A DNA stretch of 41,069 bases from a virus. Taxonomy: Duplodnaviria > Heunggongvirae > Uroviricota > Caudoviricetes. Position numbers and translations under genes: made by a program. Under the pieces are notes generated by a model that had not been told where the DNA came from, did no database searches, and saw nothing but the letters and a program-made list of their open reading frames with translations. The DNA lies in IMG/VR virus record IMGVR_UViG_2737471864_000010, positions 1-41,069 of that record; one strand, 5' to 3'. The first letter of the stretch is position 1. Each line of letters begins with the position of its first letter. Shown here one piece after another: positions 2,524 to 10,641 of the stretch.

Positions 2524-4359
2524 TCAATCAACCATTGATGGGAATGATGTTGCTATAGTAAGAACAGAACCTGAAGGAAATGATTGAATTGTAACATTTC
2601 CGTTAGCCGAAATATTGATCAGTGCTATAGCATTGTTTGTTCCACAAGGTATATAAGATATATCTTTTTCTGGCCTGAACCCTGAAGGAAGATTCATTAT
2701 AACCGTTCCAACAGAAGTTGCCCCTCCAGTTAAAACGCAATTTATATTTATAATACCATCCAGAGATTTTTGGTATGTCCCTTTCCTTGATTCTCCTATA
2801 ACCCATCCATTTTGTAACAGGCCAGATATTTCATATTGCTTACCACGCCACTGTGACCATGTGTTCTCACTTATCCTTCCTATGCGAGTAAAACACACTC
2901 TGCTACTTTCAGATATATATCCATATAATTTTTGCAACACTACTCCATCAACAAATCTATCGACCTGAATAACACCATCAAGAGGCCAAGAAGAATCATC
3001 AGGATTTGTTCTCCACCATGAAGTCCCCATATGAAACGTATTTGGTGGATATGAACTACCAACAAATTGCAAAGATGAACCATTGTTAGAAAATAAATTA
3101 GAACTTCCATTTACTACTTTGCATGGGCCATATATGTAATCAAGTAACTCATGGTGAATTTGGGCGCTAAAAACATAATTTGGATGAATTCCGCGACCAT
3201 CCACATATGGATTATCAAGCCAGTTACCTGCTGCGCCTCTGGAATCCTGCCACATACCGTAAGTGTCAAAAAACATGCACTTATATTGTTTAGCTTTAGC
3301 TCTAAGCACGGCTGTTAACTGTTCATACCATTTTTCATCACGTCCGTTTGGTGTGTCTGATGTTGAGTTTGGGGACATGATAATAATTGATTGCTGGGAA
3401 ACTGATTTGTTATTTCGTAACTTGGAAAGACCTCTATCTAATGCGTCTTTTACTTGATCCAATGTATAACCATAATATGGATCGTTAATTCCCCATCGTA
3501 AAACAATCAAATCAGCAGCAGAAAAAACAGACCATTCCCGATCAATATACCAATTACCCCATTCGTATAGAGTTTTACCTGAATGACCTAACGATGTATT
3601 TTTTACATCAATAATTCCATACCTTTTTGCATAAAAATCAGCGATAGTGGCTGGAGGCCATGACTCAGAGTTTACACCAACTATAGTGGAGTCTCCAGAC
3701 CATAAAATATATGTTTTTTTATCTGAAGTTACTCCGTCACCGTTAATAAGTTTATTTGTAACATAATTTAAATACTCTTGACCTATAACAAATCTATTCC
3801 TCGGATTTGTGTATGTTGATAACTGGACACCATCCCTATTAAAAACTCTTCCCCTTCTAGCATCGATTTCCACACCATAATCATTGTTAATAGAATCAAC
3901 AACCTCATCTTCATTAATTGTTAACACCGTCTGACCTGAGACGGATGAATTAATAGCGTCTTGTATTTTTGTTTCGATAGCGCCAGATCTTTTAATGTCT
4001 TTTTCAGCACGATAATATGCCTGATCTGGGTCATATTTTAACACATTCGGAAAATAGAACTGCTGTGCACCATATGCATCATAAACAGCCATAGAATGGC
4101 CTTGCACAGTTACGAACTTGGCAATCTGTCCGTTATATACCGGGTAACCAGCAGCGTTAATGATGATTGGTTGCGATACAGGAACGTGAGAGCCATCTTC
4201 GTTCTCCACATAAACCTGCACTTGATTCTGTGGGAGCGTAGGATCGGAATCTATCTTACCAATGAATATCTTGCCATTGCTTGCGGCCTGGAATTTTCTG
4301 GCTAACGTAAATAGTTGACTTGGCATTGAAATTATAACATTTGGCACAATATTTGACAT
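2524..4359 (-). CDS. Tailspike protein: P22-type N-terminal head-binding domain fused to an SGNH/GDSL-hydrolase-like (esterase) domain
   Basis: N-terminal ~110 aa (…NGKIFIGKIDSDPTLPQNQVQVYVENEDGSHV…VTVQGHSMAVYDAYG…NVLKYDPDQ) closely resembles the P22 gp9 head-binding domain; central region carries SGNH blocks WSGDSTIVG, RWGINDP and DGRGIHP. The 3' two-thirds is visibly AT-rich. Confidence 0.75.
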   Translation of the reverse strand: MSNIVPNVIISMPSQLFTLARKFQAASNGKIFIGKIDSDPTLPQNQVQVYVENEDGSHVPVSQPIIINAAGYPVYNGQIAKFVTVQGHSMAVYDAYGAQQFYFPNVLKYDPDQAYYRAEKDIKRSGAIETKIQDAINSSVSGQTVLTINEDEVVDSINNDYGVEIDARRGRVFNRDGVQLSTYTNPRNRFVIGQEYLNYVTNKLINGDGVTSDKKTYILWSGDSTIVGVNSESWPPATIADFYAKRYGIIDVKNTSLGHSGKTLYEWGNWYIDREWSVFSAADLIVLRWGINDPYYGYTLDQVKDALDRGLSKLRNNKSVSQQSIIIMSPNSTSDTPNGRDEKWYEQLTAVLRAKAKQYKCMFFDTYGMWQDSRGAAGNWLDNPYVDGRGIHPNYVFSAQIHHELLDYIYGPCKVVNGSSNLFSNNGSSLQFVGSSYPPNTFHMGTSWWRTNPDDSSWPLDGVIQVDRFVDGVVLQKLYGYISESSRVCFTRIGRISENTWSQWRGKQYEISGLLQNGWVIGESRKGTYQKSLDGIININCVLTGGATSVGTVIMNLPSGFRPEKDISYIPCGTNNAIALINISANGNVTIQSFPSGSVLTIATSFPSMVD

Positions 4360-4379: not shown

Positions 4380-4874
4380 ATGAATATGATTACTCATAAA
4401 GAATTAACCTCTTCACTCAACTACAACCCAGAAACAGGCGTCTTCACTTGGAAGATAGCTTCTGGTAGCTCCAGTATCGGAAAGGTTGCTGGATTTAAGA
4501 CGAACTCACAGGCCGACTACTTATCAATACGGATTAATGGAAAATCGTATCTTTGCCACCGACTTGCTTGGTTTTATATGAAAGGATGCTGGCCTAAAGG
4601 GTTAATTGACCATATTAACGGGGTTAAAAATGACAATAGAATTTCAAACCTAAGAGAAGTAACCAGAGGTCAGAATAAAACCAACAGCGTTTCATCATCC
4701 AATACAGGTATAAAAGGAGTTCATCTTCTTAAAGGGAAAAACACATATAAAGTTATGTTCAAACTAAAAGGTAAGTCTATTTTCCTTGGGTATACCGATG
4801 ATATTGAGCTGGCAGAATTAATGTCTATTGCATTCAGGGAAAAATATCATGGCGAGTTTGCTTGTTTTAGGTAA
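4380..4874 (+). CDS. HNH homing endonuclease with AP2-like DNA-binding domain (paralog 1 of 3)
   Basis: 164 aa; motifs NYNPETG, HRLAW, DHINGVKNDNRISNLR and C-terminal GIKGV…KYHGEF; AAGGA ribosome-binding site 7 nt upstream. Confidence 0.75.
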   Translation: MNMITHKELTSSLNYNPETGVFTWKIASGSSSIGKVAGFKTNSQADYLSIRINGKSYLCHRLAWFYMKGCWPKGLIDHINGVKNDNRISNLREVTRGQNKTNSVSSSNTGIKGVHLLKGKNTYKVMFKLKGKSIFLGYTDDIELAELMSIAFREKYHGEFACFR

Positions 4875-4907
4875 TGTCTGTCATTTAATTTGCTCCAGAT
4901 ACAAGGA

Positions 4908-5007
4908 ATCGCCGCAGCATGGCTACGGTTGGCGTTTGTTTGGTTTTTGAACTACGAAAATTTCGTAGTGCTATCCATCAAGGCCATCGCCGCAGCATGG
5001 CTACGGT
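4908..5007. repeat. Two copies of a 22-bp direct repeat (ATCGCCGCAGCATGGCTACGGT) flanking a perfect 19-bp palindrome (ACTACGAAAATTTCGTAGT)
   Basis: Direct reading; copies at about 4908-4929 and 4986-5007, palindrome at about 4951-4969. Confidence 0.6.
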
Positions 5008-5019
5008 GAATTTTTGGCA

Positions 5020-5044
5020 TAAAAAAACCCAGCCGAAGCTGGGT
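5020..5044 (-). terminator. Intrinsic terminator downstream of ant
   Basis: Minus strand reads GACCCAGC-TTCG-GCTGGG followed by TTTTTTT. Confidence 0.65.
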
Positions 5045-5062
5045 CATTGCGTTGGTTATCTG

Positions 5063-5986
5063 TCAGTAGTTATGTACTGAAGGAGGTAATTCTTTATTCT
5101 TAAGTCTCATCCATGCGGAAAGATTCGCTGGTCCGTCTGGCTCATTAATATCAACATCTCGTGTGTGGTTTATTAAAACGTCTCTCGCCATTCCTATAAC
5201 ATACGAGAACTCATGACCGTAGTCGTAACATCTGCCGGAATAGTTCGATTGAATTTGTTTTAGCGCCGGATACAATTCGCGGAATAATGCCTGTGAGCGG
5301 TTGGCATAATCCCATAACCATACGAGGCTGTTTGCTTCTTTTGCAGAAAGCTCGTTGGTTTTCTTCTCTTGTTTGCAGATGAACTCACCTTCAAGCGGAA
5401 CGCGAGCTGCAAGTGACAGTGCTTCGGTAAACTGCTCCTCACTAATTTCTTTGTACGAACATCCAAAATGGGATTTCAGTGACGACCACATGGTGATCAT
5501 CGCCTTAGCCTGTTTTTCTTTTGGCAGAGACTGACCGCGACTCATGACGAGTTGTTTAATGGCTTCCTGCTGTTCAGTGGTGATTTTACCCTGCAACGCC
5601 TTTTTAGCTTTGCGTGGGTTAACTACATGGCCTTTAGTCCAGTACTCATAGAGCACATCGTCACACTCTTCCTGATACTGGATTACCTTGTCGCGGATTT
5701 CAGGGCGGACTTTGTTTGGACTGATGGTTTGCAACCAGCCATTAAGTTTACGTAAAGCAAGGCAAATCATGTTCTGCACACCGCCAACTGAAGGTATTGC
5801 GATTTCCACAATACCTTTAGCAAATCTTTGTTTTAACTTTGTAAACTGTGAAGCCCAATCCATACCCATTCCCTCAACGATAGGTTTCATTGGGGTGTAC
5901 GGCTCACCGTTGTGATTGACAACATAAAGCTCTGCGCCGTGGAATGGTACATTGATAGTAGATACTGCTGTTGCTATACTTTTCAT
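5063..5986 (-). CDS. ant: Antirepressor (Ant-like) protein
   Basis: 307 aa located downstream of an Arc-like gene and divergent from mnt, as in the P22 immI region; N-terminal region resembles phage antirepressor domains. Recognition from memory. Confidence 0.55.
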   Translation of the reverse strand: MKSIATAVSTINVPFHGAELYVVNHNGEPYTPMKPIVEGMGMDWASQFTKLKQRFAKGIVEIAIPSVGGVQNMICLALRKLNGWLQTISPNKVRPEIRDKVIQYQEECDDVLYEYWTKGHVVNPRKAKKALQGKITTEQQEAIKQLVMSRGQSLPKEKQAKAMITMWSSLKSHFGCSYKEISEEQFTEALSLAARVPLEGEFICKQEKKTNELSAKEANSLVWLWDYANRSQALFRELYPALKQIQSNYSGRCYDYGHEFSYVIGMARDVLINHTRDVDINEPDGPANLSAWMRLKNKELPPSVHNY

Positions 5987-6049: not shown

Positions 6050-6253
6050 TCAACTTTCTGCTCTATCAGTTATATCTTTCCCTTCATATACTTCACCTAT
6101 ATTGCTAATGCTGGCAGAACATCCAAGATGCTTGTATCTTATGATGTCCAACACGCAGTCACTACACAGCATCCGACCTGTTTCTTTAGAGTAAATGTAT
6201 GTTTGATCAGCGTCTGATTCGCTAATGCCGCAGAAACAACATTCTTTACTCAT
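6050..6253 (-). CDS. Small Cys-rich (zinc-ribbon-like) hypothetical protein between arc and ant
   Basis: 67 aa with CCFC…CSDC cysteine pairs; start overlaps the arc stop. Confidence 0.4.
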   Translation of the reverse strand: MSKECCFCGISESDADQTYIYSKETGRMLCSDCVLDIIRYKHLGCSASISNIGEVYEGKDITDRAES

Positions 6254-6390: not shown

Positions 6391-6489
6391 TGCATCCTCC
6401 GTTGTATGTGGTACGCATACATAGTATTTAGGTACGCATTGATAGTCAATAGATACCTACATATCCTGTGGTAAAAAATTATTCAGGAT
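6391..6489. promoter_or_regulatory. Divergent immI control region (Pant/Pmnt-type) with operator-like palindromes
   Basis: Intergenic region between divergent arc and mnt-like genes; contains repeated GGTACGCAT and the palindrome ATTGATAGTCAAT. Confidence 0.4.
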
Positions 6490-6495
6490 GTGCCG

Positions 6496-6753
6496 ATGTC
6501 TGATCGTAAGTACAAAAACCCTCAAGTGAATCTGAGGCTTCCTGTAGAGATAAAGGAACGTCTTATTGAACTGGCTGAGGCTAATTCTCGTTCATTAAAT
6601 GCTGAGATGGTCGCGGCACTTGAAGCATGGACCGAAAAAAATAAACACATTCAAGCACTAGACCTTGCAACTATAGCATCACGATTGATAGATCTTGAAC
6701 ATGATGTTGAGAAGTTGAAATGCATGTATAGCAACAATAAAGACGAAAGTTAG
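6496..6753 (+). CDS. Ribbon-helix-helix (Arc/Mnt family) DNA-binding protein, second Mnt-like paralog
   Basis: Track ORF starts at a GTG at 6490; the ATG at 6496 with an AGGA site is preferred. The N-terminus NLRLPVEIKERLIELAEANSRSLNAEMVAAL fits the RHH pattern. Confidence 0.55.
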   Translation: MSDRKYKNPQVNLRLPVEIKERLIELAEANSRSLNAEMVAALEAWTEKNKHIQALDLATIASRLIDLEHDVEKLKCMYSNNKDES

Positions 6754-6776
6754 AGATACTAACTTGGAGTGATGGC

Positions 6777-7028
6777 ATGGCTAGAGACGATCCGCACTTT
6801 AACTTCCGTATGCCTTTGGAAGTAAGAGAAAAATTGAAATTAAGAGCAGAGGCTAACGGAAGGTCAATGAACTCAGAGTTATTACAAATCGTTCAGGATG
6901 CGCTATCAAAACCATCACCGATTGCAGGCTATCGAGACGATGCAGAACGCATCGCTGATGAGCAGTCCGAACTTGTTAGGAAGATGGTGTTTGATACGCT
7001 GAAGGATTTGTACAAAAAACCCACCTGA
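6777..7028 (+). CDS. mnt: Mnt repressor (ribbon-helix-helix)
   Basis: 83 aa MARDDPHFNFRMPLEVREKLKLRAEANGRSMNSELLQIVQDAL…, very close to P22 Mnt as I recall it. Confidence 0.8.
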   Translation: MARDDPHFNFRMPLEVREKLKLRAEANGRSMNSELLQIVQDALSKPSPIAGYRDDAERIADEQSELVRKMVFDTLKDLYKKPT

Positions 7029-7040
7029 CGGTGGGTTTTA
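7013..7040. terminator. Bidirectional intrinsic terminator between mnt and the convergent two-gene cassette
   Basis: AAAAAA-CCCACC-TGAC-GGTGGG-TTTT; overlaps the mnt stop codon. Confidence 0.6.
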
Positions 7041-7460
7041 TTAGTGCTTGTATAGGTTGAACTCTCTATCAAGCCATATAACAAAAAATGTCGATCCAAG
7101 ACGATAACCAACCATGGCTTTCAAATCATCAAATCTAAAAGCCAAGAAATGATCTACGTCTTCCGTTATATGACTGGGGATACCTGCTTTAATTGCACCC
7201 CTTGCAATCTTCTCAAATCCAAGCTTATGCCTACCTTGCTGCTTAATATCTGCCCATGTTAGTTGACTTAATCTGTATAATTTATCAGCTAAGCCAGCTT
7301 TCTCATCTTTTTGGCATTTCGTTATGCAGTGAGAGCTTTGGATGTAACAGAATGAAAATTTCGGTTTCTTTTGATCTGAATTCCCCCCTGACTGCGGCCC
7401 TAACTTTAACTTACCTGTAGATTCAGCAGGGGGGATAATCCTTTTAGATTTTCTTGCCAT
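7041..7460 (-). CDS. Hypothetical protein, candidate toxin partner of the upstream Panacea-domain protein
   Basis: 139 aa from MARKSKRIIPP…; starts 4 nt after the upstream stop. C-terminus …GYRLGSTFFVIWLDREFNLYKH loosely recalls RelE/YoeB-type toxin C-termini. No confident family assignment. Confidence 0.4.
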   Translation of the reverse strand: MARKSKRIIPPAESTGKLKLGPQSGGNSDQKKPKFSFCYIQSSHCITKCQKDEKAGLADKLYRLSQLTWADIKQQGRHKLGFEKIARGAIKAGIPSHITEDVDHFLAFRFDDLKAMVGYRLGSTFFVIWLDREFNLYKH

Positions 7461-7464
7461 CTCG

Positions 7465-7914
7465 TTAGTTAATCCGAGTTGCAAAGTACTCTGCCATCTC
7501 CTTAGAACTAATTTCAGAACCACCAACACCCTCAATATAGTTTGATCTCCATGGTGACTCTTCGTGTGTCATGTTCCTCAGTTTCCAGGCAGAAAATTGC
7601 CCAAAAACATCCCAGACTTCTTCTAATAGCTCTAACTGTTCTTCGCTGAATTTTTCAGCATCAAAAGACTCTGGAGAAGGGATAGCACCATTACCATATT
7701 GTTTATAACGGTGATAAAGCTCAGGGACAACAGGGCCATGCATCCAAGCTTCCATCTTATTCTGAAAAAGAGGCTCGCCAAGCAACGCCAATGAAAAACC
7801 CTGAGCATAGTAAACAAGCTTTTGTAATTTTAAATTAGAGATTGCGTCACCGCTATCCTCGTCACACCGCGACAGGAAGTAGTCGGCGACATCAAAACAA
7901 GTAAGCATGAACAC
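7465..7914 (-). CDS. DUF4065 / Panacea-domain protein (COG3600, GepA-like), candidate antitoxin
   Basis: 149 aa with the characteristic NLKLQKLVYYAQGFSLALLGEPLF…EAWMHGPVVPELY block; GGAGGTG ribosome-binding site. Recognition from memory. Confidence 0.6.
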   Translation of the reverse strand: MFMLTCFDVADYFLSRCDEDSGDAISNLKLQKLVYYAQGFSLALLGEPLFQNKMEAWMHGPVVPELYHRYKQYGNGAIPSPESFDAEKFSEEQLELLEEVWDVFGQFSAWKLRNMTHEESPWRSNYIEGVGGSEISSKEMAEYFATRIN

Positions 7915-8282
7915 ACCTCCATCTTGATAGCCACAGCTAAGTATCCAACTATGTCAAATGTCATTTAATACTATAACAAAGCTATCAGCAATCCTTCGGA
8001 GGCTAACTTACAACCACTTTAGCGACATGTTTAAACCATTACGTTTCACATTTACTGCATTTTCGCCGAAGTTACCTATAAGGTAATGTCACATTTCCTG
8101 CAAGTTTCATGCAATGTTGAAAAGTGAGCTATTCACTTTTCTATGACACCAAACACCAAAAATAGCACTTTTTGCTAAATCATTCGTCCAAGTTGTGGAT
8201 GGTTTGTCGTTGACACGTTTTCACACACCACTCCACCAATAAAGTATCATCTGGTATCCTGAGCAAAACTAAGGAGGTTGGT

Positions 8283-8777
8283 GTGTCTGATTCTATGAGT
8301 TACGCTGTGCTAGTTGCCGCAACTCTATTTCTGGGGATAGGGTTGCAGATTGCGTGGTTCTTTTTTTCTAGTTTTATTAAACGTAAAAGAATTGAATCAA
8401 GGATATCTGAGATTTCTATTGCTATAGGGAAAAATGCTGAAAATCCAGAGAATGAGGCCTGCGCACTGAATTACCTTAAAGAAAAGTTTTCCCCTGAAAA
8501 ATTTGAAAACAGAATTACTGATGCTCTTGGATTGGTAATATCAGTAATTCATATGCCACTAAGTTTGCTGATAACAGTGTGGTACTTCGCCATGATCGCC
8601 GGAAGAATATTTGGTTTCATGAATATAGAGCCTGTAGTTCTTTGGGTTCCAATGATACTGCAATTGTTGTTAAGCGTTGCTATCTTTATTTTTTCTGTTT
8701 TTATAAAAATTGTCTTCGGAAGATACCCCGGAGAAGCGAAGGGATTTAATAAAGAATTCATAAAAACTATAAAATAA
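8283..8777 (+). CDS. Polytopic inner-membrane protein at the sieA (superinfection exclusion) position
   Basis: 164 aa with about four hydrophobic segments; GTG start preceded by AAGGAGG; lies between the gp16-like gene and the immI region where P22 carries sieA. Homology to SieA not verified. Confidence 0.4.
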
Positions 8778-8799
8778 ATGCCGTCCTTGGCTTACAGTG

Positions 8800-10641
8800 C
8801 TACTGCCGGGTAGCTTCGTTAACTAAGAGCGGGCGCACGGCAGTAGCCGCCTGATTTAGCGCTCTTTCATAAGCTGGCGTTCCAGCTTTAGTGTTTGCCA
8901 GACGTAAGAGCGCATTCCTTGCTGCTTTGGATTCATACAAGCGCATCATTGCACCGAAACCAGCCTCAAGCCCCATTGATACGCCAAGAGTCGTAGTTGC
9001 GCCAATCGTCCTTATCCTGTTGGCTTGCGATTGCCCCGTCTGAGTTACTACATTTGCGGTGTCTGATCTTGCTGTTTGCTGTAGAACTTCATGAAGAGCA
9101 TCAAGTTCTTTCATGTGCTTTCCAGAAAAAATAGCGTTGTAAATTTCACCACCTGACTGAGATTTCAGCTTATTAACTTCCGTGATGAACTTGGCTGGAG
9201 AGTCACCGGCCTTTTCCGCTATTTTGCTGACGTAAGCTGCACGCATAGCATCTTTCCCTTTATCATCCAATGCGCTCCAGATTCGTTTCACGTCAGATGG
9301 TTTTCTGCTTAATACAACAGTATTTATAAGTTCAGGACTGGCTTCACTGCTTGCCTTGTTGAGCTTGTTAGCAATGTTTTTATTAAGCACCTTATTATAA
9401 ACGTTTGCATAATCGGAATTTGCTTTAAGGTATTTTGCTGCGTCTGAAGCACCGAGGTTTTTAGCAACTGCGTTACGAAGGTCTTTTGACATTGCATTCT
9501 CTACCATATTGGTAGCTGCTTTTGCCTGGTTGGGGAAGACCATGGCATCTCCCTGAACATTAGATCTAAATGCTGTTCTGTGCTGGCGCAAGAGATCAAA
9601 CGTAACATCCAAATCAGTTGCAGGGTTTGCTAATTCTTCACGTAGGTTACGCAAGGATGTAAGCAGGCTTTGATTGGCAGAAGTCCCAAGCCGTTCCTGT
9701 CTTGCGATCGCTGTATTCAGAGCATTCATGGTATTTGTGGTATCAACTGCGGCATTACCCATTTTATTGGTGACGTCATTGATAACAGCGCCAGCGGCAT
9801 CCTTCCGTCCCCTTAACGTGGTGGTCAGAGATTTCACCACATCATCAGGGTTGTACTCACCAAAACGGTCAAAATAATTGCTTACCAGCTTACTACGCGT
9901 TGCATATTGCTCCGCTCTCTTTGAGCCTGTCCCGAGCAAAGCCCCCTCGGCATCCTGAGTAAGGCCGCGAGTGAAAGCATTTTTCGGCGGGATAACATCA
10001 GATGTCATTGGTGTCACGCCCATCGATTCTGATGTGGCAATTTTCTTCGCCACTTCTGGCGCAATATCACCTTTTATAGCCGTTATTCCACGCCCTATTC
10101 CCTTTGCTGCTGCGGAAAGAACACCCTGAGCGGCAAGGTTAACTCCGGCATTTTTAGCTGCATTTTGTGCGAAATCACCTTTCTGATTTGCGGCCTCTGC
10201 CAGTGATCCAATAGCCATGCTTCCTGCCGTTCCAACTCCTGGAACTAAATACCCGCCAATTGTTTCTCCAGCTTGAGCGTAGGGGTCTGTCGGTCTGTCT
10301 ACTGGACGATAAACATCATCCAAAACCTTGGGGCCACCAAGCCCCTGACTGATTGCATTAATCAGACTTGCGCCACCCTGCAATACGTCAAATGGTATGT
10401 TTACCAGACCACGACCAGCCTGTTCTGCAATTTGCCCTGCACTTTGACCACCAGTGAGCCAATCGCCAGCTTGTTGCATCAATGATGGTTCTTCCCGTGT
10501 TGGTGCATTATTGGCCTGATTAACTGTTTGTTGCTGAACAGCCTGACCAGCAAAATACTCATCAATGGCGGTGCCAATATCTTCGGTGCTCGTACCATCA
10601 GGGAAGGTAAATGTCTTACCGTTTGCAGTTACTTTCATCAT
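8800..10641 (-). CDS. Ejection (internal virion) protein, P22 gp16-like
   Basis: 613 aa, Ala/Gly-rich; size and position after gp7 and gp20 match P22 gene 16. Confidence 0.65.

Follow-up and report, generated by a model that had tools for sequence, protein, structure and literature searches.

What is the two-gene cassette that lies between an Mnt-like gene and the superinfection-exclusion gene sieA in a P22-like phage, and what may its second gene do? The cassette is found in the virus record IMGVR_UViG_2737471864_000010 of IMG/VR, of which we analyzed positions 1 to 41,069 as one stretch of 41,069 nucleotides (hereafter, the window). The open reading frames (ORFs) of the window place two co-oriented genes on the minus strand, which we call panA and panT in the order of reading. 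An initial annotation, made from the letters of the window, took the first gene for a Panacea-domain gene and the second for an unrecognized partner, and proposed a candidate toxin–antitoxin or abortive-infection module. With modest confidence, we read the cassette as a mobile PanA–PanT module of the T1 type that a P22-like coliphage carries as prophage cargo at its variable mnt/sieA junction. Its second product would be a RelE-fold endoribonuclease that is inhibited by the Panacea protein and serves in abortive infection or addiction.

The identity of the first protein follows from profile searches. PanA matches the Pfam family PF13274 (SocA_Panacea) over residues 28–120 with an E-value of 7.6e-25 and a score of 88.5 bits, above the Pfam gathering cut-off of 25.7. 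This search, which had been proposed as a check, bears out the assignment to the Panacea (DUF4065) family. PanA also matches phrog_1281 (E 1.5e-60) and the NCBIfam profile SocA_antitoxin (E 1.4e-19). The protein is a standalone Panacea without an extra N-terminal domain, and a Pfam search found no DNA-binding domain in either cassette protein. The length of 149 residues given initially is correct for the ORF that runs from a GTG at 7914 to 7465. The internal ATG at 7908 is part of an ATG-CTT start preceded by a GGAGG Shine–Dalgarno sequence, which is kept in relatives, and it coincides with the start called by the Prokaryotic Genome Annotation Pipeline (PGAP). PGAP labels this product a 147-aa "Panacea domain-containing protein". 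The partner PanA proteins at 34 distinct loci are 143–153 residues long and 47–80% identical.

The second protein is harder to place. PanT has no match in Pfam, nor do any of the 47 members of its family show a meaningful one; this family alignment consists of PanT and 46 aligned homologues. To that extent the description of an unrecognized family stands, but PanT does match PHROG 8366 (E 5e-66), and it matches two further profiles that are more informative. Residues 31–135 align with positions 178–279 of the 284-position PADLOC model for NsnC, within its C-terminal domain (E 4e-6). All 47 members of the T1 alignment match the same part of this model (approximately 178–279), with a best E-value of 1.9e-10. 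The NCBIfam profile MAG6450_fam gives E 0.05 for PanT itself and is matched by 43 of the 47 members, at best with E 2e-6. In the Menshen (NsnABC) anti-phage system, the effector is NsnC; its C-terminal domain has been described as PB-BECR1, a YafQ-like ribonuclease (RNase) with an H-R-H triad (Li et al. 2025, PMC12065111). PB-BECR1 is the commonest effector domain of that system. Judging by these profile matches, PanT and the C-terminal effector domain of Menshen NsnC belong to one sequence family.

Structure prediction, another check put forward in the initial annotation, points in the same direction. An AlphaFold2 model of PanT, calculated on the 47-sequence alignment, is confident (mean predicted local distance difference test score, pLDDT, 85.9). 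It begins with a disordered N-terminal tail of approximately 30 residues; a short strand, a pair of helices, and a sheet of four strands follow. The core of the protein (residues ~33–139), in which the helices pack on the antiparallel sheet, is predicted to have the fold of RelE, YoeB, HigB, and YafQ (BECR fold). A Foldseek search with this model agrees qualitatively with a RelE-type fold, with weak E-values (0.09 or worse). Seven residues are invariant or nearly so in the alignment: H78, E83, K84, R109, R120, D131, and the C-terminal H139. This set is compatible with the sets found in YoeB- and YafQ-like enzymes and with the H-R-H triad of NsnC, and we surmise that it includes the catalytic residues. 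PanT differs from the mRNA interferases RelE, YoeB, YafQ, and HigB in several respects. It is only 6–13% identical to them and has no match to solved members at the level of hidden Markov models; it carries approximately 45 additional N-terminal residues, about 30 of which are disordered; and its partner is a Panacea protein instead of a RelB, YefM, DinJ, or HigA antitoxin.

The pair itself has been described before. The DNA of the cassette is 100% identical to orf149 and orf161 of Salmonella phage vB_SemP_Emek, and the two proteins are identical to YP_006560565.1 (PanA) and YP_006560566.1 (PanT) of that phage. Exactly this pair appears in Dataset S2 of Kurata et al. 2022 (PMC8832971) under the label pT1/T1, with a "noNTD" PanA, the gene order A|T, the HHpred call "mRNase", a reciprocity of 4/5, and a gap of -62. 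With about 217 rows in that set, T1 ranks among the top two PanT clusters by size (PMC8832971). The idea that the pair is unrecognized therefore has to be given up: the cassette is already known and is not a discovery. We found no follow-up on T1 in the literature, and the NetFlax supplements (Ernits et al. 2023) do not contain these accessions; toxin activity has never been validated for any member of T1. The cassette differs nowhere from the PanAT pair of Kurata et al. 2022, except that the published construct encodes 161 residues and the conserved ORF 139.

Is the pairing itself conserved? We examined 94 loci, including 80 viral contigs. In 91 of them, from several phyla, a Panacea gene lies directly upstream of panT on the same strand. 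Examples are an Aeromonas P2-like prophage, a Solidesulfovibrio prophage, an Acidobacteria chromosome, the end of a Morganella prophage, and a Pantoea element. The spacing in the Aeromonas, Acidobacteria, Morganella, and Pantoea loci ranges from an 8-nt overlap to a 6-nt gap, comparable to the 4-nt gap in the window. This gap suggests that the translation of panA and panT is coupled. Together with the published reciprocity of 4/5, these data place the cassette among PanAT pairs by gene adjacency. With few exceptions in the loci that we examined, panA and panT are direct neighbors in the same orientation and are inherited together. Of the three loci without this arrangement, two show the toxin only as a truncated remnant. 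The third, locus L031 (IMG/VR UViG_2639762749_000019, 2688–3423), contains an intact T1 gene with a 143-aa product after a 100-aa fusion ORF. The N-terminus of this ORF does not appear to be related to Panacea; the final ~25 residues (...IEGVGYQVISHNELKDYFLTRIN) correspond to the C-terminal tail of PanA.

The distribution of the family is broad. A search with PanT returned 180 matches in a database clustered at 90% identity, and 1,555 representative clusters (50% identity) were matched at E ≤ 1e-3. PanT occurs on well over a thousand contigs from E. coli and Salmonella, with annotated lengths of 139, 147, 160, and 161 aa. Ratios of nonsynonymous to synonymous differences per site (pN/pS) of 0.17–0.42 for panA and panT point to purifying selection on both genes; these values are raw pN and pS in place of Jukes–Cantor dN/dS, since synonymous sites are saturated for that correction.

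Several results weigh against the assignment of PanT as a toxin that is neutralized by PanA. First, YP_006560566.1 was scored "not toxic" in E. coli, and so was a second T1 protein, the E. coli MOD1 homologue with a gap of -20 (PMC8832971). Of the initial proposal, the architecture of a toxin–antitoxin-like module, which is conserved across phyla, stands; the toxicity that this name implies is weakened. E. coli can hardly be dismissed as the wrong host because the cassette occurs in it naturally: 48 of 5,426 complete E. coli genomes contain both genes in full. Second, L031 suggests that panT does not need a complete PanA to be tolerated. Third, the RNase assignment of PanT rests on the predicted fold and on the match to NsnC, and sequence searches of PDB chains with PanT gave no match. 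Fourth, we found no consensus σ70 promoter on the minus strand upstream of panA; the only candidate is weak (GTTATA-18-TGaCATAGT, ending at 7948).

The lack of a sequence-level match to solved RelE-family RNases would also suit a protein of the same fold that does not cleave nucleic acids, such as a ParE-like gyrase poison or another binding protein. We regard this as very improbable. The conserved His, Glu, and Arg residues and the C-terminal His resemble the catalytic sets of YoeB and YafQ, the family matches the RNase domain of NsnC, and the HHpred call by Kurata et al. is "mRNase".

The published non-toxicity deserves a closer look at the constructs. YP_006560566.1 is a 161-aa annotation that begins at a TTG at position 7526 of the window, 62 nt inside panA, matching the listed gap of -62. 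This form places 22 residues, MVVLKLVLRRWQSTLQLGLTNE, ahead of the conserved methionine. From the gap of -20, the MOD1 construct would be the 147-aa form with 8 extra residues. In contrast, the ATG at 7460 aligns with a methionine that is invariant as first residue across the 47 homologues, it is the start called by PGAP, and it yields the close spacing to panA that other loci also have. With the two starts 22 and probably 8 codons upstream of this ATG, neither construct that was assayed would correspond to the native protein, and the 161-aa start of YP_006560566.1 appears to be a mis-annotation. The initial annotation had named non-toxicity of the downstream protein by itself, together with the lack of a defense or growth phenotype of the pair, as what would speak against its proposal. 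Formally, the literature provides the first of these for two constructs, but both carry extended N-termini. Such extensions may alter the activity of PanT; this is our inference and as such a weak point of the reading. Rescue by PanA and complex formation are marked "n/a" for this pair in Table S1 of Kurata et al. 2022 (PMC8832971). The negative results are most simply explained either by the 22- and 8-residue extensions or by an RNase that stays latent until it is activated, as one would expect of this domain in Menshen.

The second of these explanations leads to a different picture of the cassette, in which PanT is a latent RelE-fold RNase that is harmless even without PanA, and the Panacea protein is a sensor that activates it on a phage cue. 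This two-component sensor–effector defense would parallel Menshen. It would account for the absence of toxicity of two constructs in the natural host species and for an intact panT gene without a full Panacea gene in L031. It also fits the homology of PanT to the effector domain of NsnC, for which control by NsnA and NsnB has been proposed, the location of the cassette beside sieA at a prophage cargo site, and the preference of Ernits et al. 2023 for a sensory role of Panacea. Against it, both negative assays were made with N-terminally extended proteins, and the standalone-Panacea pairs studied so far act by direct neutralization of the toxin by Panacea. Furthermore, no defense phenotype has been reported, and PADLOC offers no model that covers the Panacea protein. 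We consider a sensor–effector pair of this kind rather unlikely, albeit the main alternative.

A third possibility is that the pair only stabilizes the prophage, by imposing a penalty on its loss in the form of post-segregational growth arrest, and has no role in defense. The classical type II toxin–antitoxin architecture with a RelE-fold partner and the occurrence in prophages and other mobile contexts agree with such a function. In the Acidobacteria genome, however, the same pair is found among chromosomal housekeeping genes; the toxicity that pure addiction requires was not seen; and a prophage, once integrated, does not easily disappear through segregation. This makes a pure addiction module improbable in our view.

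How would a PanA-inhibited RNase work? In the reading that we favor, panA and panT would be co-transcribed up to the terminator that follows panT, and their translation would be coupled. PanA would bind PanT directly and keep it inactive. PanT would be an endoribonuclease that probably cuts mRNA on the ribosome, with an acid–base pair formed from H78 or E83 and the C-terminal H139, and with R109 and R120 stabilizing the transition state. Loss of PanA could act as the trigger, or else the Panacea domain could sense a cue such as an infecting phage. Release or activation of PanT would then arrest translation and result in abortive infection or prophage addiction.

The cassette is related to two further systems without belonging to either. 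With Menshen, it shares the homology of PanT to NsnC's C-terminal domain at the sequence level. We rejected membership in this system because the 139-residue PanT corresponds to that domain only and lacks the inPIN N-terminal domain, and because no NsnA (ParB-DUF262) or NsnB (ABC ATPase-DUF3696) gene is adjacent; the neighbors are panA, sieA, and homologues of Mnt, Arc, and Ant. Li et al. do not mention Panacea (PMC12065111). With SocAB, the type VI toxin–antitoxin system of Caulobacter, the cassette shares the Panacea domain. Here, too, membership was rejected: the SocA_antitoxin score of PanA is 70.5 bits versus an equivalog cut-off of 190, and the partner is predicted to have a RelE fold and is not SocB. 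The PanAT pairs that Kurata et al. examined by pull-down formed direct toxin–antitoxin complexes, an indication of direct neutralization and not of an adaptor role (PMC8832971).

The features of the locus are collected in Table 1. The cassette has a GC content of 40.2%, compared to 46.3% for the window, and falls into the lowest 10% among windows of the same size. It is thus AT-rich as first described, if modestly so, and in this respect resembles its neighbors sieA and immI. It is flanked on one side by sieA, with a gene-16-like ejection gene beyond it, and on the other by two Mnt-like genes, an Arc-like gene, and an Ant gene. The location near ejection genes and superinfection-exclusion cargo is therefore as the initial annotation had it.

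Table 1. Positions of the panA–panT cassette and of adjoining features in the window
Feature	Position	Strand	Description
panA	7465–7908	minus	standalone Panacea (DUF4065) protein, 147 aa (ATG 7908) or 149 aa (GTG 7914)
panT (Kurata cluster T1)	7041–7460	minus	139 aa; putative endoribonuclease with predicted RelE/YoeB fold (BECR, PB-BECR1-type); basic disordered N-terminal tail of ~30 residues
intergenic gap CGAG	7461–7464	minus	4 nt separating the panA stop (TAA 7467–7465) from the panT ATG (7460)
bidirectional intrinsic terminator	7016–7039	both	common to the minus-strand cassette and the plus-strand Mnt-like gene
intergenic region between panA and divergent sieA	7909–8282		374 nt; kept between phages with strongly diverged PanAT alleles
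palindrome GAAAAGTGA-n5-TCACTTTTC	8119–8127 / 8133–8141		perfect 9-bp arms
block GCAAAAAGTGCTAT	8162–8175	minus	third AAAAGTG copy, ~265 nt upstream of panA
Mnt-like gene	6777–7028	plus	Arc and Repressor_Mnt domains; convergent with the cassette; stop overlapped by the terminator
sieA	8283–8777	plus	164-aa membrane protein, 92% identical to P22 SieA

The terminator downstream of panT has perfect 10-bp arms at 7016–7025 and 7030–7039, which enclose a 4-nt loop and are followed by a U-run on both strands. The folding energies of the two strands are -15.8 and -18.1 kcal/mol, with z-scores of -4.7 and -4.4, in line with the bidirectional function that had been assigned to it. The Emek record annotates the same hairpin as a terminator. 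P22 has its terminator t_mnt at the same position with a different sequence. An Rfam scan of 6400–8900 gave only sub-threshold matches to the terminator hairpin and no known small RNA or leader element.

The palindrome upstream of panA had been suggested as an operator. Its perfect 9-bp arms are present, approximately 210 nt upstream of the panA start, but the regulatory role finds no support. Inverted repeats that are perfect over 9 bp, with at most 10 nt between the arms, occur 13 times in the window (about nine of them distinct), versus 2.1 ± 1.8 times in shuffled sequences; a single such repeat is therefore unremarkable. The palindrome is intact in Emek, EC.P3, and locus L052. In locus L046, in which the upstream region is otherwise nearly identical to that of the window, two non-compensatory substitutions leave 7 of the 9 pairs. 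It is absent from Pantoea, Aeromonas, and the other more distant loci that we compared, and the Morganella locus has its own, dissimilar repeat (AAAAGTG-n1-CACTTT) at -73. We rejected the palindrome as an operator because of the break in L046, the lack of conservation outside close relatives, and its position approximately 170 nt upstream of the weak promoter candidate, with no σ70 consensus nearby. The cassette also lacks a DNA-binding domain, and the half-site of the palindrome does not occur in the arc/mnt operator region. According to Ernits et al. 2023, Panacea is probably not an autoregulator. A terminator function was rejected as well, since the corresponding RNA hairpin is weak (-10.6 kcal/mol, z -2.4) and no U-tract follows it.

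The block GCAAAAAGTGCTAT is common to the window, EC.P3, L046, L036, L038, and the Pantoea locus L013, while the sequences around it diverge. Three of the eight AAAAGTG copies in the window fall within 8120–8172, two of them direct and one inverted inside 55 nt. A functional element may reside somewhere in the AAAAGTG/GCAAAAAGTGCTAT region. Comparison with EC.P3 shows that the intergenic region 7909–8282 is 94% identical to 3903–4276 of its locus (L002), as opposed to nucleotide identities of 68% for panA and 57% for panT. The boundary between the two regimes is sharp and lies near the panA start. PanAT alleles appear to have been exchanged behind a conserved flank.

The backbone of the window is that of a mosaic E. 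coli P22-like phage with phiv205-1 and CUS-3 as nearest relatives. At the spot that is occupied by the cassette, P22 carries orf59a, t_mnt, and a spacer of approximately 320 nt. Since P22 has other content here, the cassette (~7029–8251) has either been inserted at the mnt/sieA junction or replaced what lay there. Emek contains the same cassette in a different backbone and has a Sf6 gp38-like ORF where the window has a true sieA. The junction between mnt and the ejection genes seems to collect toxin–antitoxin-like cargo.

Several other genes around this site caught our attention. In CUS-3 (L096, CP000711.1), positions 4578–5581 at the mnt/ejection junction encode a 199-aa unrecognized protein and a 139-aa protein that matches the Pfam family YafO_toxin (E 3e-11), followed by hkcB. 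In EC.P3, a gene for a 178-aa ClpP-like protease (PF00574, E 4e-12; L002 2442–2978, plus strand) adjoins the diverged PanAT allele. SocA, the founding Panacea protein, is a ClpXP adaptor. The window contains two tandem Arc/Mnt-family ribbon-helix-helix genes on the plus strand (6490–6753 and 6777–7028) versus the single mnt of P22. Only the second of them has the Mnt C-terminal domain, and the arrangement in CUS-3 is the same. Finally, a minus-strand ORF at 6050–6253, between the arc-like gene and ant, encodes a 67-aa Cys-rich protein (CCFC...CSDC) without a Pfam match; Emek orf73 is annotated at the corresponding arc/ant position.

Three elements of this analysis are new: the start-codon caveat, the link between T1, PB-BECR1, and the MAG6450 family, and the swapping of alleles beside sieA. 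The "not toxic" verdict on T1, a cluster with about 217 entries in the set of Kurata et al. and 1,555 clusters in our searches, may need to be repeated with the 139-aa protein. The equation of T1 with PB-BECR1 and the MAG6450 family, a link made neither in Kurata 2022 nor in Li 2025, supports a role of these proteins as RNase effectors in immunity. If PanT were indeed a latent effector, the cassette would be a minimal two-protein phage-sensing system; this would explain the absence of toxicity and would provide a sensory function of Panacea that can be demonstrated. For the phages themselves, the mnt/sieA junction points to a locus that exchanges toxin–antitoxin or defense cargo beside a superinfection-exclusion gene.

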